Source of the DNA: Candidatus Eiseniibacteriota bacterium
GTDB lineage: Bacteria; Eisenbacteria; RBG-16-71-46; DASYSL01
DNA length: 64,000 nt
NCBI GenBank assembly: GCA_031431875.1
Contig: JANPEF010000061.1
Span: 15,764 to 79,763 of the forward strand
Direction of reading: 5' to 3'
Under the pieces are notes generated by a model. It was not told the DNA's origin. It searched no databases and saw nothing but the letters and a program-made list of their open reading frames with translations. Positions 30,993-53,379 of the stretch are shown one piece after another. Numbering within the stretch: position 1 is the stretch's first letter; each line of letters opens with the position of its first letter. The translations under genes were made by a program, and so were the position numbers.

Positions 30993-31985
30993 CTAGGCAG
31001 CGCGGCGGGCGGGCGTCTCGACGCAGTTGCCGCCGTGCTGCCGCGCATCGCGCAGCACGCGCTCGGTCACCGCCCACAAGGTCTCGAGATCCACGCCGTC
31101 GCCCGGGAACGTGGCGACGCCGAACGTTGCCGACACGGCGCCCGCGGCGTGCGGTGCGAAGGCGTGGGTGGTGAGCGCGCTGCGCATGCGTGCGGCCACT
31201 TCGACCGCACCCTCGCGGCCGGTCTGCGGGAGCACGACCGCCGTCAGGCCGCCCGTGCAGCGGCCGACCAGGTCGATGTCGCGCACGTGCGATCCCAGGA
31301 GTTCCGCGACGTCCGCCAGAGTGCCCGCCGGCCAGGATTCGTCGCCGGCATCCGCCGCCGGATCGACCGCGACGAGGATCAGCGACAACTCCTGCCCGTG
31401 ACGATGGGCTCGCCGGATCTCCTTCTTGAGCGCGGCGCGCAGTGTGCGCTCGCCCACGGCATCCCCGTCGTCGGCCCTGGGTACACGTGCGGCGAGGCGG
31501 CGGCGTTCGAGCGCGGCGCCGAGCCACGCGGCGAGGAGGAGCATCGACTGCATCTCGCCTGCGGTGAAGCGGGCGCGGCCGCGACGGCGATGGACGGCGA
31601 GGTACGAAGGCTCGTGATCGGCCCGCGCGATCGGCACGAACAGCACGGGCCCGGCCTCGACGCCCGGGCAGCCGTCGCCCTCGGCATAGGCCGGTTGTTC
31701 GGACAGGTCGGCGAAGCTGATCGTCCGGGGTTCGGCCGCGAGGGCGCGCAGCGCCTCGCTGCCCTCCGGCGCGAGCGGCAGCACGGCCGGCAGGTCGCCG
31801 CCCGCGTGCAGAACCAGGCGCTCGGTCGGACGGCGCGACGACACGAGGACGACCGCGGCCGCATCGGCGTCGACGAGGGCGCCCGCGGTGCGCAGGGCGC
31901 GCGCGAGCAACTGCCCGCGCGTTCCGGGTGACGCCGGGTTCTCGAGTGCGAGCAGCAGTTCGTGGATCCGGTCGGCCTGGGCCAT
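30993..31985 (-). CDS. GAF-GGDEF diguanylate cyclase family protein (active site looks degenerate)
   Basis: AGGAGG Shine-Dalgarno before ATG 31985; N-terminal GAF-like region, C-terminal GGDEF-fold ...RCTGGLTAVVLPQTG..., but no intact GG(D/E)EF signature is readable by eye. Confidence 0.6.
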   Translation of the reverse strand: MAQADRIHELLLALENPASPGTRGQLLARALRTAGALVDADAAAVVLVSSRRPTERLVLHAGGDLPAVLPLAPEGSEALRALAAEPRTISFADLSEQPAYAEGDGCPGVEAGPVLFVPIARADHEPSYLAVHRRRGRARFTAGEMQSMLLLAAWLGAALERRRLAARVPRADDGDAVGERTLRAALKKEIRRAHRHGQELSLILVAVDPAADAGDESWPAGTLADVAELLGSHVRDIDLVGRCTGGLTAVVLPQTGREGAVEVAARMRSALTTHAFAPHAAGAVSATFGVATFPGDGVDLETLWAVTERVLRDARQHGGNCVETPARRAA

Positions 31986-32324
31986 TGCCCTTCCTCCTTG
32001 GCGACGCCGGACGGTCGGCGTCGAGGCAAGGAAGTGCAACCGCCATGCCAGCGAGGTCAGGTCGGGCACCGAACGCGCAGTGTGTTGTCCCGGTGTGCAT
32101 TGCGCTTGTCGCTTGCGATGTCAGGTGAGCCTGGCGGCTTTGCCACCAGGACAGGTGGCGTCGATTTGGCCACCCGGGGTGGGCGATTGACACCCGGTGC
32201 GGATGCTCCTATGCTCCTTGGGCTCGCCGATTCGAGCCCCCCACGAGCATCGTTCGCAGCACCGGGACTTCGGCCCGGTCCCCTGCCCCAGCCAGCAAAC
32301 TCACGGTTCCGTGGAGGCAGTCCC

Positions 32325-41741: not shown

Positions 41742-43520
41742 CTACCGCACCATCACCAGCTTGGCGTCGAAGCGCGTCTCGCCCACCTCGCCACGGTAGA
41801 AGTACATGCCGGGCGCCACGCGCGCGCCCGTGTCGTCGGAGCCGTCCCACGCGATCGACGCTTCACCGGCGGGACGCGCCTCGTCGACGAGCGTGCGCAC
41901 CTTCTGGCCGCGCACGTTGAAGATCTCGAAGTGCACGTGGCCCGCGGTCGGCTGCGCGTAGCGGATGCGCGCGCCGCCGGTCGTGCTGGCGAACACGACG
42001 CTCGATGTCCGCGGAGCAATTTCTGCGAGCGGCAGGACGCTGCCGGACTCTGCGGTGACTCCGCCTCTCGGCACCGTCAATCCAGCAGCCGTGGCGTCGA
42101 AGGCTGCTCCTTCATTCGCCCTCGCCGCCTGCGGCGGCGAGATCATGTGATGATCGTGCGCGAAGCCCGAGTGCGATGGCGCGACATACGGGAACGCGCC
42201 CTGGAACGGAAGTTCGTTTGCGTCGACGCCGTCGCCCAGCAGGGAGTTCGGCTCGCCCGCGCCCAGCAGCACGCCCGCGACGGCGCGCAACTCGATGTCG
42301 ACCACGTCGTCGACCAGGCGGCGGCCGTTGGGGAAGCCGTCGAGCTGGCCGGCGAGCACGCCGAGGCGGTTCGGCGACAACGACGGGGCGATCGCGGTGT
42401 TGAGGCGGATCATCTCGGAGGGGACGACGTCGGCGCGCTTGTTGAGGCCGTCGACGCCGGTGAGGAACACCGCGACGAGATCGTTGCGCGGCGCCGGAGG
42501 TACGGTGAGGCCGTACAGCAGGTTGAGCAGCCGCGCCGGCTCGGGGTCGACCACGTACGAGAGGAACTGCCCGTCGTCGGCCGGCTTCGACGCGTTCCAG
42601 CGATCCTTCTGCGACAGCGGCAGCACGATCTCGTTGACCAGCGGCATGCCCAGGCGCGACACCTGCTGCCACGGACCCTTCTCGTCGTCCCACGCCATCT
42701 TCCTGCCGGTGCCGCCGGCCTTGCGGCTCGCCGTCGCCCACACGCCGAGGATCGCGTTCGGATCGGTGGTACCGGTGGGCATCGCGCCGGTCGCGGTCAG
42801 CTTCGCGATCGGCACCTGGATCGCGATCGTCTGGCAGTTGTACCCGCCCAGGCCGTCGACTCCGCCACCGGCGTTACCCGGCGCGCCCGGGCGAATGGTC
42901 AGCAGGTCGAACACCGCACCCAGGTCGACGAAGAACGGATCGTCGCTCTGGCCGGCGTACACCTTGATGTCGCCGTCGAGGGTGCGCACCGCCTGCTGCA
43001 TGAGCACGGGCCAGTTCGGCGTCGACGCCGGGCCGATGTTCGACGGGGTCGTGGACAGGTCGTTGCCGAGCACACGACGCCCGTTCGACTCCTCGCTCGT
43101 GACGTAGAGCTGGTAGGTCTGCGGCCGGTTCCAGTTCGGGTCGGTGAGGCTGTGGATCGGCCCGACGTTGTAGAGGAACGTGTTGGCGTTGCGGGTCGCG
43201 GTCGAGAAGCGGAAGTTGTAGACGATCTCGGCGGCCGGGTCGCCGTCATTGCTGACCTTGACCTGGTAGAGCACCTCATCGCCGAACTTGTAGAAGTTCG
43301 GGCCGCCGCCGGGCTCCTGCACGCCGTTGTAGGTCGCGATCAGCGTGACCGTGCCCGGCGCATCGGGGCTGACGAAGGCATAGACGTCGAGGTTGTCGGC
43401 GACGGGATCTTCGGCGATGGCGGGGGCTTCGCGGTGGCTCGAAGCCAGGGCGATCGACGGCAGCAGGGACACGGCGCTGGCAAGCAGCAGGGCACGGGCA
43501 AACGAAAGCGGACGGGACAT
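41742..43520 (-). CDS. DUF4331-family secreted protein with FlgD-Ig / T9SS-type C-terminal sorting domain
   Basis: GGAGGT Shine-Dalgarno; signal peptide then SSHREAPAIAEDP, which is the DUF4331 signature N-terminus; C-terminus ...HVHFEIFNVRGQKVRTLVDE...GMYFYRGEVGETRFDAKLVMVR. Confidence 0.7.
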   Translation of the reverse strand: MSRPLSFARALLLASAVSLLPSIALASSHREAPAIAEDPVADNLDVYAFVSPDAPGTVTLIATYNGVQEPGGGPNFYKFGDEVLYQVKVSNDGDPAAEIVYNFRFSTATRNANTFLYNVGPIHSLTDPNWNRPQTYQLYVTSEESNGRRVLGNDLSTTPSNIGPASTPNWPVLMQQAVRTLDGDIKVYAGQSDDPFFVDLGAVFDLLTIRPGAPGNAGGGVDGLGGYNCQTIAIQVPIAKLTATGAMPTGTTDPNAILGVWATASRKAGGTGRKMAWDDEKGPWQQVSRLGMPLVNEIVLPLSQKDRWNASKPADDGQFLSYVVDPEPARLLNLLYGLTVPPAPRNDLVAVFLTGVDGLNKRADVVPSEMIRLNTAIAPSLSPNRLGVLAGQLDGFPNGRRLVDDVVDIELRAVAGVLLGAGEPNSLLGDGVDANELPFQGAFPYVAPSHSGFAHDHHMISPPQAARANEGAAFDATAAGLTVPRGGVTAESGSVLPLAEIAPRTSSVVFASTTGGARIRYAQPTAGHVHFEIFNVRGQKVRTLVDEARPAGEASIAWDGSDDTGARVAPGMYFYRGEVGETRFDAKLVMVR

Positions 43521-43620
43521 CGGACGACCTCCGGACTGGGATGGGACACGGGTTCTGGGCCTCACCCGGGATACGGACCCCGCCGGCGATCGGATGACCC
43601 GCGGATGCTAGGATGCGGCC

Positions 43621-44685
43621 ATGTTCGTGCTCGGCATCGAAACCTCCTGCGACGACACGGCCGCCGCCGTGGTCGAACACGGCCCCCGGCCCCCCCGGCT
43701 GGTCTCCAGCATCGTCGCGGTGCAGGACGTGCACCGCGAGTTCGGCGGCGTCGTGCCCGAGCTGGCCTCGCGCGCCCACCTCGAGCTGCTGCCCGGCGCG
43801 GTCGAGCGGGCGCTGGCCGAGGCCGAGCTCGATTTCGACGACATCGACGGCATCGCCGTGACGCGCGCACCGGGGCTCCTCGGCGCGTTGCTCGTCGGCG
43901 TGAGTTACGCCAAGGCGCTGGCCGTCGCGCTGGAGAAGCCGTTCGTCGGCGTCAATCACATCGAGGCCCACCTGCTCGCGCCGCTGCTCGAGGGTGCCGT
44001 GTTCGAGTTTCCGGCGGTCGGCGCGGTCGTCTCGGGCGGACACTCCGAGATCTTCCTCGTGCACGCGCTCGGCGCCTACACGCTGATCGGCACGACGCGC
44101 GACGACGCGATCGGCGAGGCCTTCGACAAGGCCGCGAAGTTGCTGGGGCTGGGCTTTCCGGGCGGCCCCGTCGTCGACCGGCTCGCCGCCGTGGGCGACG
44201 CCGGGCGGCATCCGCTCCCGCGCGGGATGAGCGGCTCGGGCGACCTCGACCTCTCGTACTCCGGGCTCAAGGCGGCGACGCGACGGCTGATCGAGGGCCC
44301 GGCGGGTGCGCTGTTGCGCGCCGCGCCCGAGTCGGACGAGGCGGCGCAGCTGCGCGCCGACATCTGCGCGTCGTTCCAGGTCGCCGCGGTCGATCCGCTC
44401 CTGTCGAAGCTCGAGACCGCCGCGCGCCGCCACGGCGCCCGCTCGCTCGTCGTCGGCGGGGGCGTGGCGTGCAACTCGCGGCTGCGCGAAGGCCTCGCCG
44501 GGATCGGCACGCGGCTGGGCATTCCCGCTTTCCGGCCGAGCCCCGCGCTGTGCGCCGACAACGCGGCGATGATCGCGCTCGTCGGCGGCTTCCGGCTGGC
44601 GCGCGGTGAGCGCGACGGACTCGACCTCGAGCCCGTGCCGAGCCTCGACGAGAGCGGCATGCTCTCCGTGAAGGCCCCCGCGTAA
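43621..44685 (+). CDS. tsaD: tRNA N6-adenosine threonylcarbamoyltransferase TsaD (Kae1/Gcp)
   Basis: MFVLGIETSCDDTAAAVV...HIEAHL...GGGVACN; a TAGGAT hexamer lies 6 nt upstream of the ATG. Confidence 0.85.
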   Translation: MFVLGIETSCDDTAAAVVEHGPRPPRLVSSIVAVQDVHREFGGVVPELASRAHLELLPGAVERALAEAELDFDDIDGIAVTRAPGLLGALLVGVSYAKALAVALEKPFVGVNHIEAHLLAPLLEGAVFEFPAVGAVVSGGHSEIFLVHALGAYTLIGTTRDDAIGEAFDKAAKLLGLGFPGGPVVDRLAAVGDAGRHPLPRGMSGSGDLDLSYSGLKAATRRLIEGPAGALLRAAPESDEAAQLRADICASFQVAAVDPLLSKLETAARRHGARSLVVGGGVACNSRLREGLAGIGTRLGIPAFRPSPALCADNAAMIALVGGFRLARGERDGLDLEPVPSLDESGMLSVKAPA

Positions 44686-45062
44686 CTGCTTGTCCCCGCG
44701 CGCCGGGTGCGTCCGTCCCCGGTCGCAATTCGCTCGCCGGGGCCCGAAATCGTGCCGATCGCACGGGGTGCCGCGGTTTCGGATCGAACCGAGGCGGTCC
44801 GGGCATCGAAAATCCCTCGCCTGCCGCTGGCCAGGGGCCCGTTCCGCAATCTTCACTCAAACGATGCTCTGCCAATCACTTCCAGCGGGGGACCAGGCTC
44901 GGTTGCGCTCCCGGGACACCGCAAGGCGTGCGGCCCTACGGGCCGCAGAGCTGGAACTCCTTGGGCGGCACGGGACTTGCGCCGATATCGCGGCGGGGTC
45001 CCCGGGCCGGCGCGTCGCGCGCCGCGCCAAGGCGGGCGTGACCCCGGGGGAGGGGAGCGCAC

Positions 45063-46088
45063 GTGACGCAGGGGAAGTCTCGCATCCTGGTTGCCGACGA
45101 CGAGCCGAACCTGCGTGAGGCGCTGCGCATCCTCCTCGATCGGAACGACTTCACCGTCCTGCTCGCCGTCGATGGGCAGGAGGCCGTCGAGATCGCACAG
45201 CGCGAGCAGCCGGACCTCGTGCTCCTCGACGTCATGATGCCGCGCATGGACGGCTACGAGGCGTGCCGCACGCTGCGCGCCCACTACCGCACGGGCCATA
45301 TCCCGATCATCATGCTCACGGCGAAGTCGCAGCAGGAGGACGATCGCGTCCAGGGCCTGTCCCAGGGCGCGAACGACTACATCGGCAAGCCGTGGCATGG
45401 CAAGGAACTGGTTCAGCGCATCAAGAACCACCTCGAGTGGGCGAAGACCCAGCGCTCCGTGAGCCCGCTCACCGGGCTGCCGGGCAACCTGTCGATTCTC
45501 GCCGAGCGACAGCGCCGCGTCGACGCGGGCCAGACGTTCGCCCAGATGTTCCTCGACATCGACAGCTTCAAGTCGTTCAACGATCGCTACGGCTTCCCGG
45601 TCGGCGACACCGCGATCACCGCCGTTGCCGACGTGCTCGCGCAGGTCATCGAGACGCAGGGACGGCCCGGCGACTTCGTCGGCCACATCGGCGGCGACGA
45701 CTTCACGGTGGTCACCGAGCCCGACCGCGCGGAGAGCCTCGCCGAGGCCATGAAGAACGCTCTCGAGGAGCGCATGCCGCTGCTCTACGAGGAGGAGGAT
45801 CGGGCCCGTGGCTCGGTGCGCGTCCTCAACCGGCGCCACGAGTACGAAGACTTCCCGCTCATGAGCGTGACGATTGCGCATGCGACGTACGATCCGGCGA
45901 CGGGGATGCACCTGGCGCAGCTCGACGATCAGCTGCGCGAGCTCAAGGAGTACGGAAAGAGCCTGCCTGGCTTCGTCGTCGCCAGCGAGCGCCGGCGCAG
46001 ACGTGTCGACGCCGGGCCCGAGACGGCCTGGGGCAGCCCGCCGAAACTCGAGGCGCCACCGCCCCAGCGGAAGTCGAAGGCGGCGTGA
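45063..46088 (+). CDS. Response regulator with C-terminal GGDEF domain (PleD/WspR-like diguanylate cyclase; the GGDEF reads GGDDF)
   Basis: REC domain ILVADDE...DLVLLDVMMPRMDG...MLTAK; then RYGFPVGD...GHIGGDDFTVV. Confidence 0.8.
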   Translation: MTQGKSRILVADDEPNLREALRILLDRNDFTVLLAVDGQEAVEIAQREQPDLVLLDVMMPRMDGYEACRTLRAHYRTGHIPIIMLTAKSQQEDDRVQGLSQGANDYIGKPWHGKELVQRIKNHLEWAKTQRSVSPLTGLPGNLSILAERQRRVDAGQTFAQMFLDIDSFKSFNDRYGFPVGDTAITAVADVLAQVIETQGRPGDFVGHIGGDDFTVVTEPDRAESLAEAMKNALEERMPLLYEEEDRARGSVRVLNRRHEYEDFPLMSVTIAHATYDPATGMHLAQLDDQLRELKEYGKSLPGFVVASERRRRRVDAGPETAWGSPPKLEAPPPQRKSKAA

Positions 46089-48337
46089 GTCTCCGGCCCG
46101 CCCAGCGAACTCGCGGCGTCGCGGTCGGAACGCTCGCGCCCGCCACGGTGAGCTCGCCGTGCGCGGCCGCGGCATTCGTGCTGACCACCAGCGGCGATGT
46201 CACCGCGCACATCGACGTGTGCGCCGAGGCCGCAAGGGGGGCGGTCGGCGGGACAGCCTGGCGGCTGGATCATCTCGAGGCCGCAAGCGGAACGCTGCAC
46301 GCCCACTCCTTCGACGGCCCGGTCCTCCTGCCCGAGCCCGGCGGCGCGCTCGAATGGCTGCTGCATCACGAGGCGCCACTCGTGCGCGAAGATGCGGCGG
46401 CCGAGGCGTTCGGTCCCGGGGCCACGGGCGCGATTCTCGGCCTGCCCGTGCGCGCGGGCGACATCCTCTTCGGCTTCCTGCGCATCGCCCTGCCGGCCGT
46501 CCCGCTGGCGGGTGTCGCCGCGCCCGGCGTGGCGAACGCGCGCGTCTTCGCCGACCTGTGTGCGCTCGCGCTCGAACGCCACGCCGGTGAGCTTCAACTC
46601 GCCCGCCAGCGCGAGCGCATGGAGGCGCTCGAGCTCAAGGCCAACGCGGGCGAGACGCTGTTCAGCGAGCTGATCGCCGTCGTCGCGCACGAGATCCGCA
46701 CGCCGCTGACCTCGATCAAGGCCTACACCGAGGCGCTGATCGACGCGCCGAGCGACGAGTTCGAGCGCCGCCGTGAGTTCCTGCACGTCATCGACGAGGA
46801 GTGTGATCGCCTGGGCCGTCTGGTCGGCGACGCGCTCGACCTGTCGCGCCTCGAGGCCGGCCTGCGCCTGCTCAAGGTGAAGCCGATGACGGCGACGACG
46901 CTGCTCGAGGACGTGGTGACCACGCTGGAGCCCGATGCGACGAAGCATGGTGTCGCGCTGGTGATCGAGGAGGGCGTGGCCATCGACGACGTCGAGGCCG
47001 ACGGCGACCTGCTCAAGCAACTGCTGTTCAACCTGGTGGGCAACGCGATCAAGTTCTCGCCGGCGGACACGACGGTCACGTTGCGCGCCGAGACCCACGG
47101 TCAAGGCCAGTGGCGCCTGTCGGTCAGCGACCAGGGCGGCGGCATTCCCGAGGACCAGCTCGAGCGGATCTTCGAGCGGTTCCACCGCGTCGAGCTCAAG
47201 AGCGGCCGGCGCGTCCAGGGCACGGGGCTGGGACTGGCCATCGCGCGGCACATCGTCGACCTGCACGGCGGTCGCCTGTGGGTCGAGAATGCGCCGACCG
47301 GCGGCTCGATCTTCTCGGCGCTCCTGCCGCGGCGGCAGCTCGCGCCGGCGCAGGTGCGCTCGGTCGCGGCCGCGCTGGCGCGTCGGGCCGACGTCGCCGA
47401 CCTGCTCGACGCGGCGATGGGCATGATCGCCGAGGTCATGGCGGCGGACATCGTCTCGACGCTGCTGGTCGACGCCGCGGCGGGCGACCTGTGCATCGTG
47501 GCGTCGCGCGGGCTCGATCCGGACGCCCGCTCGCGGCGTATGCACTTCCGCGGCGGCGTTGCCGGTGCGGTGCTGTCGGCCGGACAGCCGGTGCGCGTCG
47601 AGAACATCGAGACCGATCGTCGCTTCGGCAAGAAGAGCCATCCGCAGTATTCGACGAAGTCGCTGCTGTGCGCGCCGCTGGCGGTCGGGGGCGTCGTCGT
47701 CGGCGTGGTCAACGTCACCGACAAGCGCTCGCGCGCCGAGTTCGACGAGTCGGACCTGGAACTGCTCACGTCTCTGGTCGATCGAATCTCGGCGGCGCTG
47801 TCGCGCGCCCACGCCTATCCCGACTCGACGGCGGTGGTCGCCGAGGCGAAGGCCTCGGTGCAGTCCGTGGCACGCGTGCGGCGCGACCTGTGGCTCGGCG
47901 ACTCCGAGCTGTCGCGCCACGCGACGCGTGTCGCCGGACGCGTGGGCGTCGATCTCGCAACGGCGGCGGCGATCGCGCGCCTGACCGCGGGCGACGCGGG
48001 TGACGCGGGCGACGCGGACGGGGTGTGGTCCGCCGACGCGGCGAGCGCCGCGCGCGCGTTGCTGCTGTCGCGTGCCGAGCGCCTCGACGGCAGCGGCCGC
48101 CCCCATGGCCTGCGCGGCGAGGCGATCCCGATGGGCGCCCGCATCCTCGGAGTCATCGACGAGTTCGAGAGCATGACCCATGGGCGATCGTATCGCACCG
48201 CGTTCACCGTTGACGAGGCGCTCGGCGCGTTGCGCGAGGCCGCCGGCACCCGGTTCGACGCGGGGGTGATCGAGGCGCTGGCCGCCTCGCTCGCCGACGA
48301 GGGCTGGATGGGCGACGAACGGGAGGAGGCGGCCTGA
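46085..48337 (+). CDS. Sensor histidine kinase: GAF - HisKA - HATPase_c - GAF - degenerate HD-GYP (cytoplasmic)
   Basis: GTGA overlap with the upstream regulator; H-box VVAHEIRTPLTSI; N and G boxes LVGNAIKFS...GTGLGLAI; a second GAF; C-terminal HATRVAGRVG...RAERLDGSGRPHGL (HD-GYP motif with GYP changed to GRP). Confidence 0.75.
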   Translation: MSLRPAQRTRGVAVGTLAPATVSSPCAAAAFVLTTSGDVTAHIDVCAEAARGAVGGTAWRLDHLEAASGTLHAHSFDGPVLLPEPGGALEWLLHHEAPLVREDAAAEAFGPGATGAILGLPVRAGDILFGFLRIALPAVPLAGVAAPGVANARVFADLCALALERHAGELQLARQRERMEALELKANAGETLFSELIAVVAHEIRTPLTSIKAYTEALIDAPSDEFERRREFLHVIDEECDRLGRLVGDALDLSRLEAGLRLLKVKPMTATTLLEDVVTTLEPDATKHGVALVIEEGVAIDDVEADGDLLKQLLFNLVGNAIKFSPADTTVTLRAETHGQGQWRLSVSDQGGGIPEDQLERIFERFHRVELKSGRRVQGTGLGLAIARHIVDLHGGRLWVENAPTGGSIFSALLPRRQLAPAQVRSVAAALARRADVADLLDAAMGMIAEVMAADIVSTLLVDAAAGDLCIVASRGLDPDARSRRMHFRGGVAGAVLSAGQPVRVENIETDRRFGKKSHPQYSTKSLLCAPLAVGGVVVGVVNVTDKRSRAEFDESDLELLTSLVDRISAALSRAHAYPDSTAVVAEAKASVQSVARVRRDLWLGDSELSRHATRVAGRVGVDLATAAAIARLTAGDAGDAGDADGVWSADAASAARALLLSRAERLDGSGRPHGLRGEAIPMGARILGVIDEFESMTHGRSYRTAFTVDEALGALREAAGTRFDAGVIEALAASLADEGWMGDEREEAA

Positions 48338-50694
48338 TGGGACGCACCGCCCGGCCGCGGGGGATCCGCGGCGGCTCGGTCAAGTCGACGTGGAGCGAGA
48401 TGCAGCAGCTCCGCCAGCGCGTGCGCGATCTCGAGCAGATGCGCGAGCGCCTGTCGCGGCTCTACTTCAGCCAGGTCGAGACCGGCAAGGCGCGCATGGA
48501 GAAGCTCCATCGCATCCTCGAGGTCGTGACGAGGCTCAACTCGAGCCTCGACATCGATTCGCTGCTGGGCCAGATCGTGGGCGCCGTGCAGAAGAGCCTG
48601 GGCTTCCGCATCGTGCTGCTGCGCATCCTCGATCCGCAGTCGAACGCGCTGCGCGCCCGCGCCTTCGCCGGCCTGTCGCCCGTGGCGATCGCGCACCTCG
48701 AGGCCGCGGACGTGCCGGTCGGCGAGTTCCAGTCGTGGTTGACGGACGAATCCCGGGTCAGCCGCTCGTACTTCATCAGCCACAAGAACCAGTTCAGCCG
48801 TCGCCTGCCGGACGGCATCGTCCACGACCTGGGCACGCGCGAGGACTGGGAGTGGCATCCCGAGGACGTGCTGCTCGTGCCGCTGTACACGCGCACGGGC
48901 GAGCTCATGGCGTATCTCTCGGTCGACGATCCGGTCGACCGGCTGGTGCCGTCGCGCGAGACCATCGAGATGCTCGAGATCTTCGGCAACCACGTGGTCG
49001 TGGCGCTCGAAAACTCGCGCCTGGTCCAGTCGCTGGGCGAGCACGGGCGCGAGCTCGAGGTCGTGAACCGTCGCATGGGCGAGCTCAACCAGCTCAAGTC
49101 GGCGTTCCTCTCCGCCGTATCGCACGAACTGCGCACGCCGCTGACCGCGATCCGGGCCTACCTCGACAGCCTGCGCGACGACCTCGACAAGCCCGGCCTC
49201 GAGGCGCCGCTGCGCTTCGTCGGCATCCTCGACGAGGAGAGCCGCCGACTCTCCGACCTGATCGACTCGATCCTGTCGTTCTCGCACCTCGAGCGGGGGA
49301 GCAATCCGCTCGAGTTCCGGTCCCTCGATGTGGCCGGGCCGCTGGAGGCCGCGGCGCTGGCGCTCAAGCCCATGGCGGAGGCCAAGAAGGTTTCCCTTCA
49401 GACCGAGCTGCGGGCTGCCGACATCAGGATCGAGGCGGATCTGGAGCTGCTCAAGCAGCTCATCCTTCACCTGGGCGGCAACGCGATCAAGTTCACCGCG
49501 CCCGGTGGGGCAGTTCGCATCACGGCGGACGCCGACGATCGGGGCCTCGTCCTCACGGTCGAGGACACCGGGATCGGCATTCCCGAGGACCAGCTCGATC
49601 GCATCTTCGAGCGTTTCTACCAGGTCGACCAGAGCCTGGTGCGGCGCTTCGGGGGCACGGGGCTGGGTCTCGCGCTGTGCAAGTCGATCGTCGAGGTGCA
49701 CGGCGGCAGCATCGCGGTGGAGTCGACGATCGGCGAGGGATCGACGTTCACGGCGCGCTTGCCGCGCCAGGCGAAGAATCCCGCGGCACAGGCCGCGCCG
49801 ACGCCGGTGACGGCGCACGGCGACGCGGACGAGGCGCTGCGTCTCAACCTGGCCTGGACGGCGGGAGTCCTCGGACTCGAACGGGTCGCGCTGCTGGCGC
49901 CCGCTCACGGGGGACACGCGGTACGGGCGTCGATCGGGTTGCCGGTACGGGCCGATCGGGGCGGAGACGACGCGCTCGCCACGCTCGGCGAGGGCCCGCG
50001 TCTCGCGGTTCCGGTGGTGCACGAGGGCCGGACGATCGGCTCGCTCGTGACGACCTGGCCCGCGACACACGGTCCGGCGGAGGAGGCGGTGCTCGCCTCG
50101 CTGGCGGAGCGGATCGGTTCGGTGCTGGCGCACGCGAACCGGATGCAGGAAGCGCACGCGGCCATGGCTGGATCGGCCGAGTTGTTGCGCGGGGAAGTGA
50201 CGCGACTGTCGCTCGGTCGCGTAGCCACGTCGGACCGGGTGCGGCGCGCGCGACAACTGGCGCGAACCCTGGGTCTGCCGCCCGACCAGGCGGCGCACGT
50301 GGCGTGGGCGGCGGCGGCCGATGCGGTGGACGCCACGCTGTTCGACGGACGCCTCGGCGATACCGCGAGCGACCGGCCCGAGGCCGTCCGCGAGATCCTC
50401 GCGCATCGCCACGAGCGCGTCGATGGTGCGGGAACGCCGCAGGGGCTGGTGGGCGACGAAATCGCCCTCGGGGCGCGGATCCTCGCGGTGGTGGCCGCCT
50501 TCGAGGAGGCGGTCGAGGGCACCAGCGGGGTCGCGAGTTGTTCGGCGGTGGACGCGATCGAAGACTTGTGGATGCGGGTCGGGCACGAGTTCGACCCGAT
50601 GGTGGTGGAAGCACTCGTCGTACTCGGGGTCGAGGAGGGATGGCTCGACCGGGGATGGGCCCAGGGCTCGTCCGACGCCGCGGAGGCGGCATGA
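48337..50694 (+). CDS. Sensor histidine kinase, paralog of the previous gene (GAF - HisKA - HATPase_c - GAF - degenerate HD-GYP)
   Basis: ATGA overlap; H-box SAVSHELRTPLTAI; GGNAIKFT...GTGLGLAL; C-terminal HRHERVDGAGTPQGL (GYP changed to GTP). Confidence 0.75.
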   Translation: MGRTARPRGIRGGSVKSTWSEMQQLRQRVRDLEQMRERLSRLYFSQVETGKARMEKLHRILEVVTRLNSSLDIDSLLGQIVGAVQKSLGFRIVLLRILDPQSNALRARAFAGLSPVAIAHLEAADVPVGEFQSWLTDESRVSRSYFISHKNQFSRRLPDGIVHDLGTREDWEWHPEDVLLVPLYTRTGELMAYLSVDDPVDRLVPSRETIEMLEIFGNHVVVALENSRLVQSLGEHGRELEVVNRRMGELNQLKSAFLSAVSHELRTPLTAIRAYLDSLRDDLDKPGLEAPLRFVGILDEESRRLSDLIDSILSFSHLERGSNPLEFRSLDVAGPLEAAALALKPMAEAKKVSLQTELRAADIRIEADLELLKQLILHLGGNAIKFTAPGGAVRITADADDRGLVLTVEDTGIGIPEDQLDRIFERFYQVDQSLVRRFGGTGLGLALCKSIVEVHGGSIAVESTIGEGSTFTARLPRQAKNPAAQAAPTPVTAHGDADEALRLNLAWTAGVLGLERVALLAPAHGGHAVRASIGLPVRADRGGDDALATLGEGPRLAVPVVHEGRTIGSLVTTWPATHGPAEEAVLASLAERIGSVLAHANRMQEAHAAMAGSAELLRGEVTRLSLGRVATSDRVRRARQLARTLGLPPDQAAHVAWAAAADAVDATLFDGRLGDTASDRPEAVREILAHRHERVDGAGTPQGLVGDEIALGARILAVVAAFEEAVEGTSGVASCSAVDAIEDLWMRVGHEFDPMVVEALVVLGVEEGWLDRGWAQGSSDAAEAA

Positions 50695-50728
50695 CCGCTC
50701 CATCCAGCCAGACAGGGAGGTGATTCGG

Positions 50729-51136
50729 GTGTCCAAGGGTCGCATTCTGGTGGTCGACGACGAGGTGTACATCGTCCACATTCTCGACTTCTCGCTCGGC
50801 ATGGAGGGTTACGAAGTCGTGACCGCCCTCGACGGCGAGCAGGCGCTCGAACGGGTCGCGCAGCAGAAGCCCGACCTCATCGTGCTCGATATCATGATGC
50901 CGAAGCTCGACGGCTACGAGACCTGCAAGGCGCTCAAGAGCCGCGAGGAGACACGCGACATCCCGGTCATCCTGCTCTCGGCCAAGGGGCGCAACGTCGA
51001 CCAGAAGACCGGCTTCGAGGTCGGCGCCGACGACTACATCACGAAGCCGTTCTCGCCGCGCAAGCTGGTCGAGCGGATCAACGCCATCCTCGGTCACGCC
51101 AACTCGAGCGACGTCCAGGAGCGCCAGGCCTCCTGA
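50729..51136 (+). CDS. Single-domain response regulator (CheY-like receiver)
   Basis: GGGAGG Shine-Dalgarno 8 nt before GTG; ILVVDDE...DLIVLDIMMPKLDG...LLSAKG. Confidence 0.75.
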   Translation: MSKGRILVVDDEVYIVHILDFSLGMEGYEVVTALDGEQALERVAQQKPDLIVLDIMMPKLDGYETCKALKSREETRDIPVILLSAKGRNVDQKTGFEVGADDYITKPFSPRKLVERINAILGHANSSDVQERQAS

Positions 51137-51234: not shown

Positions 51235-53379
51235 GTGAGCTTCGTCCGCGTCGCCTTCCCCGTCCCCGTTCGCCAGACCTTCCTCTATTCCGTTCCACCC
51301 GAGCTCGAGTCGCGGGCGCGACCCGGCGCCGAGGTGCGTTGCCCATTTGGCGCGCGCGAGCGCCGGGGGTTCGTCGTCGAGCCCGCGCGCGAAGCCGATC
51401 GCCACGGGGTGAAGGCGATCCTCGGGGTGGTCGGCGACGACGTCGTCTTCCCGCCCGACCTGCTGCGCCTGTGTTCGTGGATCGCCGACTACTACCTGGC
51501 GCCCATCGGGCGCGTGCTCGCCGCGGCGCTGCCGGGCGGGCTCGAGGGTTTTGGCGGCAGCCGCGCTCGCAAGCAGGCGGGGGCCGGCGGCGGCGCGCAC
51601 ACCGCGCTCGTCGCGCCCGGTGCGATCGCACCCGTCGGCGATCCGGGAGGGACCGGGACGCACAAGCTCACCGCGGCCCAGCACGCCGCCGGCGAGGCGA
51701 TCGCCCGCGCGCTCGACGCACGCGCCTACGCCGCCTTCCTGCTCCACGGCGTCACCGGCAGCGGAAAGACGGAGGTCTACCTCGCCGCGGCGCGTGCCAC
51801 GATTGCGGGCGGCCGCCGCGTGCTCGTGCTCGTGCCCGAGGTCGCGCTCGCCCACCAGATCGTGCACGCCTTCCGCGCCCGCTTCGGCGACCGCGTCGGC
51901 GTGCTCCACTCCTACCTGGCACTCGGCGAGCGCCGCGCCACGTGGGAGCGCGCCCGCCGCGGCGGGCTCGACGTCGTCGTCGGCGCGCGCTCGGCCGTGT
52001 TCGCGCCGCTGCCCGGCCTGGGGCTGGTGCTGGTCGACGAGGAGCACGACTCGACCTACAAGCAGAGCGAGCAGGTTCGCTACCACGGTCGCGACACGGC
52101 GCTGGTGCGCGCGCGGCTGGCCAACGCGGTCGCCGTGCTCGGCTCGGCGACGCCCAGTCTCGAGTCGTTCGCCAACGTCGAGCGCGGCAAGTACCGCCGC
52201 CTCGAATTGCCGGAGCGTGTCGACGGCCGCCCGCTCCCGGTGATCGAGCTGGTCGACCTCAACGAGGTCGCGCGTGAGGCAGCACCGGTGGCGTCCGCGG
52301 TCGCTGCGGCACCTCGTCGTCCCCGTCGCGCGCCCGGGCTGTTCACGCCGCCGCTGCTCGATGCGCTCGCCGCGACGCTCTCGCGCAAGGAACAGGCGCT
52401 CGTGTTCCTCAACCGGCGCGGGCACACGCGCATCGTCGAGTGTGAGGACTGCGGCCACGTCGAGTCCTGCCCGGCGTGCGACGTGGCGCTCACCTACCAT
52501 CGCAGCGACGAGCGGTTCCGCTGCCACTACTGCGCCTTCGAGCGACCGGCGACCGGCGCGTGCCCGAAGTGCGCGAGCCCGTTCTTCCGCCACAAGGGCT
52601 CGGGCACGCAGCGTGCCGAGAAGGAACTCGCCACGCACTTTCCGCAGGCGCGCGTCCTGCGCCTCGACTCGGACAGCGCCCGGCCGCGCGGCGAACAGGC
52701 GCGCATCCTCGGTGCGTTCGGCCGCGGCGAGGCCGAAATTCTGCTGGGCACGCAGATGATCGCCAAGGGCCTCGACTTTCACGGCGTCACGCTGGTCGGT
52801 GTCGTCTCGGCCGACGGCTCGCTGCACATGCCCGACTTCCGCGCCGCCGAGCGCACGTTCCAGACGCTGGTCCAGGTGGCCGGCCGCGCCGGCCGCGGCA
52901 CGCGCCCGGGGCGCGTCGTCGCCCAGACGCGCGCCGCCGATCACTACGCGCTGGTGGCCGCGCAGCAGCACGACTTCGCCGCGTTCGTGGCGCGCGAGAG
53001 CATCCATCGCCGCGACTTCGGCTACCCGCCGTACGGGCGGCTGGTCGCTTTCGGGATCGCCGGCGTCGACGAGGAAAAGGTGGTCGACGCAGCGACGCGC
53101 GTGGCGGCGCGGGCGCGGATCGCGGCGAGCGCCGGAACCGCGACCGGCGCTGCCGGAACCGCGGGCGAGATGCAGGTGCTCGGCCCGGCGCCGGCGCCGC
53201 TGGCGCGCCTGCGCAGCAAGCACCGCTGGCGGGTGACGCTCAAGGCCGCCGACGCGGCGTCGCTCCACGCCGCCGCGCGCGCCACCCTGGACGGGCTCGA
53301 GCACCCGGCGACGGCGGCGGATCGCCTGCCTGCCGGGGTGGCGTTGACCGTGGATGTCGATCCGTACGACCTGCTGTGA
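51235..53379 (+). CDS. priA: Primosomal protein N' (PriA helicase)
   Basis: Walker A GVTGSGKTEVY; DEEHD; C-terminal CxxC zinc fingers (CEDCGHVESCPACDVAL...CHYCAF...CPKCAS). Confidence 0.85.
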   Translation: MSFVRVAFPVPVRQTFLYSVPPELESRARPGAEVRCPFGARERRGFVVEPAREADRHGVKAILGVVGDDVVFPPDLLRLCSWIADYYLAPIGRVLAAALPGGLEGFGGSRARKQAGAGGGAHTALVAPGAIAPVGDPGGTGTHKLTAAQHAAGEAIARALDARAYAAFLLHGVTGSGKTEVYLAAARATIAGGRRVLVLVPEVALAHQIVHAFRARFGDRVGVLHSYLALGERRATWERARRGGLDVVVGARSAVFAPLPGLGLVLVDEEHDSTYKQSEQVRYHGRDTALVRARLANAVAVLGSATPSLESFANVERGKYRRLELPERVDGRPLPVIELVDLNEVAREAAPVASAVAAAPRRPRRAPGLFTPPLLDALAATLSRKEQALVFLNRRGHTRIVECEDCGHVESCPACDVALTYHRSDERFRCHYCAFERPATGACPKCASPFFRHKGSGTQRAEKELATHFPQARVLRLDSDSARPRGEQARILGAFGRGEAEILLGTQMIAKGLDFHGVTLVGVVSADGSLHMPDFRAAERTFQTLVQVAGRAGRGTRPGRVVAQTRAADHYALVAAQQHDFAAFVARESIHRRDFGYPPYGRLVAFGIAGVDEEKVVDAATRVAARARIAASAGTATGAAGTAGEMQVLGPAPAPLARLRSKHRWRVTLKAADAASLHAAARATLDGLEHPATAADRLPAGVALTVDVDPYDLL

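Follow-up and report, generated by a model that had tools for sequence, protein, structure and literature searches.

A conserved two-kinase, two-regulator cassette of Eisenbacteria with HD-GYP tails, both degenerate in one lineage: a putative c-di-GMP circuit

INTRODUCTION

In this work, we have analysed a cassette of four genes in which two histidine kinases, HK1 and HK2, end in degenerate HD-GYP domains (the tails) and stand between two response regulators, P1 and P4. The cassette lies in a stretch of 64,000 nucleotides (nt) from a Candidatus Eiseniibacteriota bacterium (assembly GCA_031431875.1, contig JANPEF010000061.1, positions 15,764 to 79,763 of the forward strand), which we call the window and number from its first letter. 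HD-GYP phosphodiesterases of cyclic di-GMP (c-di-GMP) are recognised by their HD, H, HH and D ligands, the GYP signature and an RxY[K/R] motif, and a census of these proteins lists fusions to REC, GAF, PAS, GGDEF and periplasmic sensor domains, and no kinase fusions (Galperin and Chou, bioRxiv 10.1101/2021.11.05.467447). Our reading, to which we give a probability of about 55%, is that the cassette is an Eisenbacteria c-di-GMP circuit of two kinases and two regulators, whose tails are pseudoenzymes kept for a non-catalytic role.

Several described systems resemble parts of this cassette. As in PmGH of Persephonella marina (4MCW/4MDZ), the C-terminal 320 residues of each kinase run from a GAF domain through a helical stalk into an HD-GYP bundle. 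The Eisenbacteria module differs from PmGH in being fused behind a complete HisKA/HATPase kinase, and the kinases of the window have no metal centre, the core being lost by deletion in HK1 and by substitution in HK2; even intact Eisenbacteria orthologues read IHDxGM where the canonical motif is HDxGK. DvhD of Desulfovibrio vulgaris (9RBZ/9RC0) has, like the tails, a non-catalytic HD-GYP domain with HD and HH replaced, mounted on a helical stalk that could transmit a signal through its geometry; it is fused to a dCache-transmembrane-PAS module and controls a periplasmic protease (PMC13090378). HK1 keeps M697, R701 and Y703, aligned to 9rbz, all from the C-terminal half of the DvhD pocket, but whereas the DvhD domain is full-length and its GYP tyrosine is intact, that of HK1 is missing about 30 residues of the core as well as the tyrosine. 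Within the whole DvhD contact set (Y523, L577, K582, Y621, M646, R650, Y652 and E668), only M, R and Y are kept in HK1, and none of these three in HK2.

A regulatory role, such as we propose for the tails, is also played by inactive HD-GYP proteins whose HD and HHE motifs have degenerated, among them HnoD of Shewanella and ECA3548 of Pectobacterium (Galperin and Chou, bioRxiv 10.1101/2021.11.05.467447). The kinases SgmT (Myxococcus), RavS (Xanthomonas) and CckA (Caulobacter) are tuned by non-catalytic c-di-GMP-related sites, although these are a degenerate GGDEF I-site, a PAS or a CA domain and not an HD-GYP remnant. Degenerate HD and HHE motifs with a regulatory role are reportedly also found in PA2572 of Pseudomonas and in the N-terminal pseudo-HD-GYP domain of V-cGAP3 (5Z7C). 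The latter structure, 5z7c, is the top PDB sequence match of the tail, and both its HD-GYP repeats align. HnoD, ECA3548, PA2572 and V-cGAP3 differ from the kinases of the window in having neither a histidine kinase fusion nor a core-helix deletion. By analogy, two kinases with a single-domain REC protein and a REC-GGDEF cyclase would recall the PleC/DivJ-DivK/PleD system of Caulobacter, but there is no orthology, and the Eisenbacteria cassette, a single four-gene operon, has soluble GAF-containing kinases and a cyclase with one REC domain. In the literature searched we found no description of a kinase-HD-GYP fusion, nor of c-di-GMP signalling in Eisenbacteria. The cassette is nevertheless built from known parts, and inactive c-di-GMP domains are common; it is not a new kind of system.

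RESULTS

The cassette consists of four genes, all read in the same direction from the + strand and flanked by tsaD (43621-44685) and priA (51235-53379), in a window with a G+C content of 69-76% throughout and 71% overall:

45063-46088, + strand: P1, REC-GGDEF response regulator, GTG start, 341 amino acids (aa)
46085-48337, + strand: P2 (HK1), cytoplasmic histidine kinase, GTG start, 750 aa
48337-50694, + strand: P3 (HK2), cytoplasmic histidine kinase, ATG start, 785 aa
50729-51136, + strand: P4, stand-alone REC response regulator, GTG start behind AGGGAGGTGA, 135 aa

Public gene calls, on two contigs with an identical HK1 protein, give the same four products at the same coordinates, and agree on the length of HK2 and on the start base of P4. 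Together with Pfam, they confirm the cluster of a REC-GGDEF regulator, two kinases and a single-REC regulator that the original prediction, made from the sequence alone, had proposed.

The main result concerns the C-terminal parts of the two kinases, in which the following features were located:

Residues about 600-745 of HK1, + strand: degenerate HD-GYP domain (family alignment, Pfam)
Residues about 630-775 of HK2, + strand: degenerate HD-GYP domain (family alignment, Pfam)
47986-48017, + strand: 9-nt tandem repeat CGCGGGCGA, 3.6 copies (Tandem Repeats Finder), encoding AGDAGDAGDAD, where the HD...H core of HK1 was lost
48068-48196, + strand: retained C-terminal half of the HK1 HD-GYP domain, with SRAERLDGSGRPHGL (RAE, GRP), VIDEFES (Asp692) and GRSYR (RxYR)
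50308-50538, + strand: degenerate motifs of HK2, with AAAADAVDAT (HD changed to DA), HRHERVDGAGTPQGL (RHE, GTP), VVAAFEE (Asp changed to Ala) and EGTSGVAS (RxY[K/R] lost)

Pfam recognises HD_5 in both tails, with E-values of 2.4e-18 (HK1) and 5.9e-17 (HK2). The AlphaFold2 (AF2) model of residues 425-750 of HK1 has a predicted local distance difference test (pLDDT) score of 89.3, falling below 50 at model residues 216-220, that is HK1 640-644 in the repeat linker, and its top Foldseek match in the PDB is PmGH (4mcw, E = 3e-12, 343 columns), with DvhD 9rbz also among the matches. The profile and the structural match place the tails in the HD fold, as had been supposed. The profile is covered only in its C-terminal part, at positions 103-168 (HK1) and 94-170 (HK2) of 170, which shows that the degeneracy goes far beyond the GYP tyrosine. 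Both changed signatures are in place, ERLDGSGRPHGL in HK1, where GYP reads GRP, and ERVDGAGTPQGL in HK2, where it reads GTP. The loss of the tyrosine on which the original prediction rested is thus real, but it is only part of the change, since HD, the HP histidine and HHE are also hit. Most members of the family follow the consensus IHDxGM ... HPE ... HHE(R/W)WDGxGYPRGL ... VVDAxESMTxGRPYR, against which the two kinases compare as follows (PmGH numbering for the ligands):

HD dyad (H221/D222): HD in intact orthologues; core deleted and acidic AGD linker instead in HK1; DA in HK2
HP histidine (H250): H in intact orthologues; core deleted and linker instead in HK1; R in HK2
KPG loop region: absent in HK1; shortened in HK2
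HHE (H276/H277): HHE in intact orthologues; RAE in HK1; RHE in HK2
GYP: GYP in intact orthologues; GRP in HK1; GTP in HK2
Last Asp ligand (D305): D in intact orthologues; D692 kept in HK1; A in HK2
RxY[K/R] guanine-binding motif: RxYR in intact orthologues; RSYR kept in HK1; TSGV, lost, in HK2

In HK1, about 30 residues carrying the HD dyad and the HP histidine are missing, seen as a gap in the family alignment at IHDxGM...HPE. Having lost HD, the HP histidine and both HHE histidines, HK1 cannot be a conventional phosphodiesterase, and neither can HK2, which has lost HD, the HP histidine, the last Asp and one HHE histidine. Alignment to the PmGH-type motifs therefore agrees with the original prediction in that the tails are not conventional phosphodiesterases, and it strongly supports both being non-catalytic domains. 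What is left in HK1 is well kept: an alignment of 12 sequences, degenerate as well as intact, shows no variation at E665, G669, G671, P673, D692 and R704, and the G and P of GYP are invariant in the HK1-type alignment. In the closest relative the repeat is one unit shorter (AGDARDAD); this difference in unit number indicates that the HK1 linker is still being altered by slippage.

We then placed these losses in the phylum. A scan of one genome per GTDB species yielded 473 stretches that matched; we retained the 80 best loci, nearly all of them labelled Eisenbacteria (loci are denoted L, the window's own WIN); the full-length relatives found with HK1 are likewise nearly all Candidatus Eisenbacteria. 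The order tsaD, REC-GGDEF, kinase, kinase, REC, priA was found wherever the contig was long enough, and the cassette recurs throughout this uncultured phylum. Relatives of HK1 with at least 44% identity have no Pfam HD match, whereas most of those at about 40-43% match both HD and HD_5, a split explained in the alignment by their different C-terminal ligand motifs. The scored set of ligands and GYP is intact in 69 of the 82 HK1 and 43 of the 56 HK2 sequences. Both tails are degenerate in nine loci, namely WIN, L003, L005-L007 and L010, which form the window's clade, and the sister clade L011, L012 and L027. Isolated losses affect HK2 in L017, L030/L034 and L031, and HK1 in L050 and L033.

In a neighbour-joining tree of kinase core plus tail, HK1 and HK2 form separate clades with parallel internal sub-clades, showing that the duplication is older than the sampled diversity; with most orthologues intact, the duplication is old and the loss of catalysis lineage-specific. 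The catalytic losses are also recurrent. The picture of a tandem pair that "both lost the tyrosine" gives way here to two deep, phylum-wide clades with mostly intact members. About 20 loci or species without HK2 keep both regulators, still between tsaD and priA, which means that HK1 at least can serve both. HK2 was lost secondarily in a clade with only the HK1 type (L035, L040-L042, L046-L049, L053, L054, L059, L067, L069, L071, L074, L079 and others). Cassette contigs L014, L029, L031, L046, L064, L065, L075-L077, L081 and L082 carry other titles (Limnocylindria, Udaeobacter, Saccharimonadaceae, Acidiferrales, Latescibacterota, Binatia, Dormiibacterota, Hyphomicrobiales, Bacteroidota and Omnitrophota) and are probably mislabelled or chimeric bins.

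Selection was estimated as the ratio of nonsynonymous to synonymous substitution rates (dN/dS), by pairwise Nei-Gojobori comparison with the two closest relatives, L005 and L006, and the values are to be compared between regions of the same gene:

HK1 tail: 0.12-0.18
HK1 kinase core: 0.21-0.26
HK1 repeat linker: 0.27-0.48
HK2 tail: 0.17-0.28
HK2 N-terminal GAF and kinase core: 0.01-0.08

Both tails are under purifying selection; with values of 0.12-0.28, they are not decaying neutrally. In the C-terminal half of HK2 the constraint is clearly weaker than in the front half.

The kinase parts in front of the tails are complete. In HK1, Pfam assigns HisKA (194-259), HATPase_c (306-417), GAF (437-572) and HD_5 (661-726); in HK2, GAF (72-224), HisKA (254-321), HATPase_c (368-478), a weak, decayed second GAF and HD_5 (680-756). 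HisKA and HATPase_c score well above the Pfam cut-offs in both proteins, and the H-box, the E-x-x-T phosphatase motif and the N, G1 and G2 boxes are intact (GNAIKF, DxGxGIP, GTGLGL). The phospho-acceptors are His202 of HK1, in AHEIRTP (nt 46685-46705), and His263 of HK2, in SHELRTP (nt 49120-49140). NCBIfam gave only generic kinase and regulator matches, below cut-off. The predicted architecture GAF-HisKA-HATPase-GAF-HD-GYP thus holds in full for HK2 and for HK1 except at its N-terminus: no Pfam family matches the first 192 residues, even at E <= 1, and a profile-profile comparison (hhalign) relates them only weakly to the N-terminal GAF of HK2 (9% probability). The two kinases are paralogous, as had been recognised, with 31% identity over residues 154-742 of HK1 and 215-770 of HK2, from the dimerisation helix to the C-terminus. 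Hydropathy reveals no N-terminal hydrophobic segment in either kinase, the maxima falling within the GAF domain and the tail; both are therefore cytoplasmic, again as had been stated.

The most conserved part of HK1 is its GAF domain (437-572, nt 47393-47800), in which the block ETDRRF..NHPQYxTKSLLC.PL is near-invariant across the phylum (dN/dS 0.11-0.13). This conservation suggests a conserved small-molecule ligand. The structural neighbours of the domain include the PtsP GAF, the cAMP-bound Lcd1 GAF, the haem-binding DosS GAF and free Met-R-sulfoxide reductase, and they single out no ligand.

Both regulators carry a full-profile REC domain (Response_reg, 2e-31 at residues 8-121 of P1 and 4.6e-32 in P4, its only Pfam domain), with the acidic pocket, the phospho-acceptor, T/S and K readable (DDE...LDVMMP...T/S...K); in P1 the phospho-acceptor Asp lies within LLDVMMP (nt 45222-45242). 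The GGDEF domain of P1 matches Pfam at 1.5e-16, over profile positions 19-110 of 161 only, and its signature reads GGDDF at residues 210-214 (nt 45690-45704), deviating from GG[DE]EF, as the original prediction had noted. This variant is a constant feature, H[IV]GGDDF being present in 77 of 77 P1 orthologues. In the P1 family alignment D45, D47, F49, K50, N53, D54, G61, D62, K175 and K179 are invariant. These positions make up the DxDxFKxxND...GD block and the K..GK pair that follows the last helix, and take in the metal-binding Asp, the guanine contacts and the phosphate-binding basic residues. For residues 121-341, the AF2 model (pLDDT 89.4) has a complete GGDEF fold with a beta-hairpin inserted after the motif, and reaches a target-normalised TM-score of 0.76-0.77 to the GGDEF domains of GcbC, DgcB and WspR; the alignment to the diguanylate cyclase 5euh continues through the GGDDF motif.

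We take the guanine contacts of P1 to be the equivalents of PleD N335 and D344, a mapping made by alignment. The specificity position (PleD D344-equivalent, ..VGD..) is Asp, not the Ser of Hypr enzymes, so c-di-GMP is the expected product and GTP specificity is predicted. Hypr specificity, for cyclic GMP-AMP (cGAMP), was not adopted on the same ground. With GGDDF in every orthologue and the substrate-binding residues intact, P1 is probably an active diguanylate cyclase, and the earlier idea of kinases feeding such an enzyme is reasonable. Geobacter GSU1937, a Hypr GGDEF enzyme with the same GGDDF variant, is active in vivo, which shows that the variant is compatible with cyclic-dinucleotide synthesis (PMC8835794); GSU1937 differs from P1 in having the Hypr Ser and making cGAMP, whereas P1 has Asp and the beta-hairpin insertion. 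I-site feedback on P1 was considered and not adopted: the window's P1 has RPGD (RxxD) five residues before the motif, but the orthologues, with QPGD, VAGD, QEGD or GAGG at this site, do not share its Arg.

The predicted coupling of the genes by GTGA and ATGA overlaps was found in part. P1 and P2 do overlap in GTGA, whereas the P2/P3 junction reads TGATG, a 1-nt overlap, and P4 starts 34 nt downstream of P3, at GTG 50729; the Shine-Dalgarno sequence AGGGAGGTGA and this GTG are kept in relatives. The ATGA at 50691 opens a frame of only 10 codons, whose start codon is missing in L003, and was rejected both as the start of P4 and as a conserved coupling mini-ORF (open reading frame). Both kinases end in ..EEAA or ..AEAA (48320-48339 and 50676-50694), and their last codons hold a GGAGG Shine-Dalgarno sequence upstream of an ATG, which is a real start after HK1 and not after HK2. 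A similar ..EAA C-terminus occurs in distant HK1 and HK2 orthologues; this recurrent ending could reflect a translational-coupling constraint or a genuine C-terminal motif.

In front of P1 lies a spacer that had been described as a long structured leader with a hairpin:

44686-45062, + strand: tsaD-P1 spacer, 377 nt (fold, Rfam and promoter scans)
44966-44980, + strand: sigma-54-type -24/-12 element cGGCACgggacTTGC, cGGCAC-N5-TTGC, 96 nt upstream of the P1 start codon

The folding energy of the spacer (-196.4 kcal/mol) is no different from the mean of 100 shuffles (-195.5 kcal/mol, z = -0.14), Rfam gave no match at E <= 1 in 44500-45300, and the sequence is poorly conserved outside the promoter block, so that the structured leader was abandoned, and with it a riboswitch. 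The hairpin at 44930-44946 exists, as stated, but is not distinctive: at 71% G+C, the window has 1.2 perfect 7-bp hairpins per kb, and L006, the closest relative having the spacer, does not share this one. It was rejected as a terminator or conserved element, as it also has no T-run. Neither a sigma-70-like promoter nor an intrinsic terminator was found in the spacer.

The only well-conserved block in the spacer alignment is the sigma-54-type element, a match to the consensus. Of the 66 orthologous spacers, 20 contain the strict pattern GGCA[CT]N5TTGC, in every case 70-106 nt ahead of the start codon, and the background rate in the fetched loci is 0.018 per kb; within the window alone the pattern is not enriched (5 matches, 3.4 expected). 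The cassette is probably transcribed from this putative promoter, and if it is used, the true 5' untranslated region (UTR) would be about 70 nt. A second perfect palindrome, CGGCGCG-TCG-CGCGCCG (45008-45024), lies between the element and the P1 start, in this predicted 5' UTR.

A separate GAF-GGDEF gene at 30993-31985, listed in the original prediction, is present on the - strand. Its GGDEF motif is degenerate (TGGLT), with an RxxD I-site, RDID, five residues upstream, making the protein a candidate c-di-GMP receptor rather than a cyclase. A sigma-54 consensus, TGGCATggcggTTGCA (32036-32050, - strand), stands about 50 nt before its AAGGAGG-N7-ATG (31985), so that both c-di-GMP loci of the window have putative sigma-54-type promoters. 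Upstream of tsaD, a secreted-looking protein of 607 aa is encoded at 41742-43565 on the - strand; its positional counterpart in L003 has DUF4331 and FlgD_ig domains.

DISCUSSION

We propose that HK1 and HK2 phosphorylate and dephosphorylate both P1, the probable cyclase, and P4. In most of the phylum, each kinase carries a complete PmGH-like GAF and HD-GYP phosphodiesterase, and the intact version would thus be a single polypeptide able to switch on the synthesis of c-di-GMP and to destroy the product. In the lineage of the window, both phosphodiesterase domains have turned into pseudoenzymes. The tails, being folded and under purifying selection, are taken to be kept for a non-catalytic role, and most likely they form a helical stalk and bundle through which the adjacent GAF domain sets the balance between kinase and phosphatase in the dimer. 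With M697, R701, Y703 and R704 kept, the tail of HK1 might still be able to bind c-di-GMP, though not to cleave it. Sensing of c-di-GMP is plausible for HK1 only, judged by its motifs, and nucleotide binding by HK2 is unlikely given the loss of RxY[K/R].

A different view of this conservation is that both tails are dedicated c-di-GMP receptors, which would bind the product of P1 and feed back on the kinase in the manner of DvhD, SgmT and CckA. DvhD binds c-di-GMP tightly and without metal although its HD reads SQ and its HH reads MN (PMC13090378), the HK1 tail aligns with 9rbz (E = 9.5e-14) with the equivalents of M646, R650 and Y652 kept (..SMTHGRSYR), RxYR is found in every degenerate HK1 except that of L007 (RPYQ), and the purifying selection on the tails is also what a receptor would need. 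Yet the full-length DvhD domain has what HK1 lost, as the missing 30 or so residues supply the KPG/K582 and L577 contacts in PmGH and DvhD; the GYP tyrosine (DvhD Y621, PmGH Y285), a phosphodiester contact, is Arg in HK1 and Thr in HK2, its position varies among R/W/H/Y/F/L/Q/V across the degenerate clade, and HK2 has none of the M, R and Y positions (AVEGTSGV). We regard a receptor role for both tails as doubtful. It is equally tentative, and on balance unlikely, that a previously undescribed kinase-phosphodiesterase design, in which a GAF-gated HD-GYP domain degrades the product of the cyclase that the kinase activates, has been rewired here so that the dead HK1 domain serves as a half-pocket, metal-free c-di-GMP receptor giving product feedback on the kinase, while HK2 has shed nucleotide binding.

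The blocks that persist could instead serve contacts between proteins. The DGxGxP loop might dock the GGDEF domain of P1 and tether the cyclase to the kinase, comparable to the RpfG-GGDEF contacts of Xanthomonas: E665, D668, G669, G671 and P673 are invariant or near-invariant even where catalysis is lost, and the inactive HD-GYP proteins RpfG, HnoD and ECA3548 are reported to work by contacting other proteins (Galperin and Chou, bioRxiv 10.1101/2021.11.05.467447). P1 and HK1 are also translationally coupled through their GTGA overlap. The contacts in Xanthomonas, however, reportedly depend on the GYP motif, whose tyrosine is not conserved in the tails, and the loop matters to the structure of every HD-GYP domain, so that its conservation need not mean docking, which we consider improbable. 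That the tails are functionless relics, decaying neutrally after the phosphodiesterase became redundant, would account for the repeated loss of ligands (HK2 in L017, in L030 with L034, and in L031; HK1 in L050 and L033), for the expansion of a slippage-type 9-nt repeat in HK1 and for a C-terminal half of HK2 that evolves much faster than its N-terminal half. This is hard to reconcile with tail dN/dS values well under 1, with the lack of any frameshift or truncation in the nine doubly degenerate loci (0 of 9), with the confident AF2 model of the HK1 tail and with conserved blocks that persist between members only about 50% identical, and we hold it to be quite improbable. Catalysis through different residues seems extremely improbable. 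HK1 keeps E665 and D692, HK2 keeps one HHE histidine, and some HD-GYP enzymes, such as Lysobacter RpfG, tolerate the loss of a single ligand; here, by contrast, at least 5 of the 8 ligand positions are gone and the central helices of HK1 that carry them are removed, and DvhD, with milder losses, is inactive with every metal tested (PMC13090378).

Returning to a circuit with pseudoenzyme tails kept for a non-catalytic role, several points weigh against it. The pairings of kinases and regulators are guessed from gene order. That GGDDF allows P1 to make c-di-GMP is an extrapolation from one engineered fusion protein. The strict promoter pattern is missing from 46 of the 66 orthologous spacers, and no GAFTGA-type sigma-54 activator occurs in any of the six frames of the window, for which reason a bacterial enhancer-binding protein encoded there was rejected. 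Finally, dN/dS in the tail and pre-tail of HK2 is several times that of its N-terminal sensor and kinase core (0.14-0.41 versus 0.01-0.08), in a comparison that is reliable only between regions of the same gene, as codon bias compresses dS at 71% G+C; such fast evolution is compatible with a partial relaxation of constraint.

What does this cassette add? A HisKA kinase joined to a GAF-HD-GYP module of the PmGH type, in tandem duplicates that occupy one set place between tsaD and priA throughout the phylum, is an architecture for which we found no description in the literature searched. The presence of GGDDF in all 77 P1 orthologues, with the other catalytic residues in place, is comparative evidence that this signature is a working and not a dead variant. 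Within one orthologous protein, the phylum also offers a natural series of HD-GYP domains from intact to half-deleted, which would be useful for understanding why a pseudo-phosphodiesterase is kept, and which portion of the pocket is needed for c-di-GMP binding.

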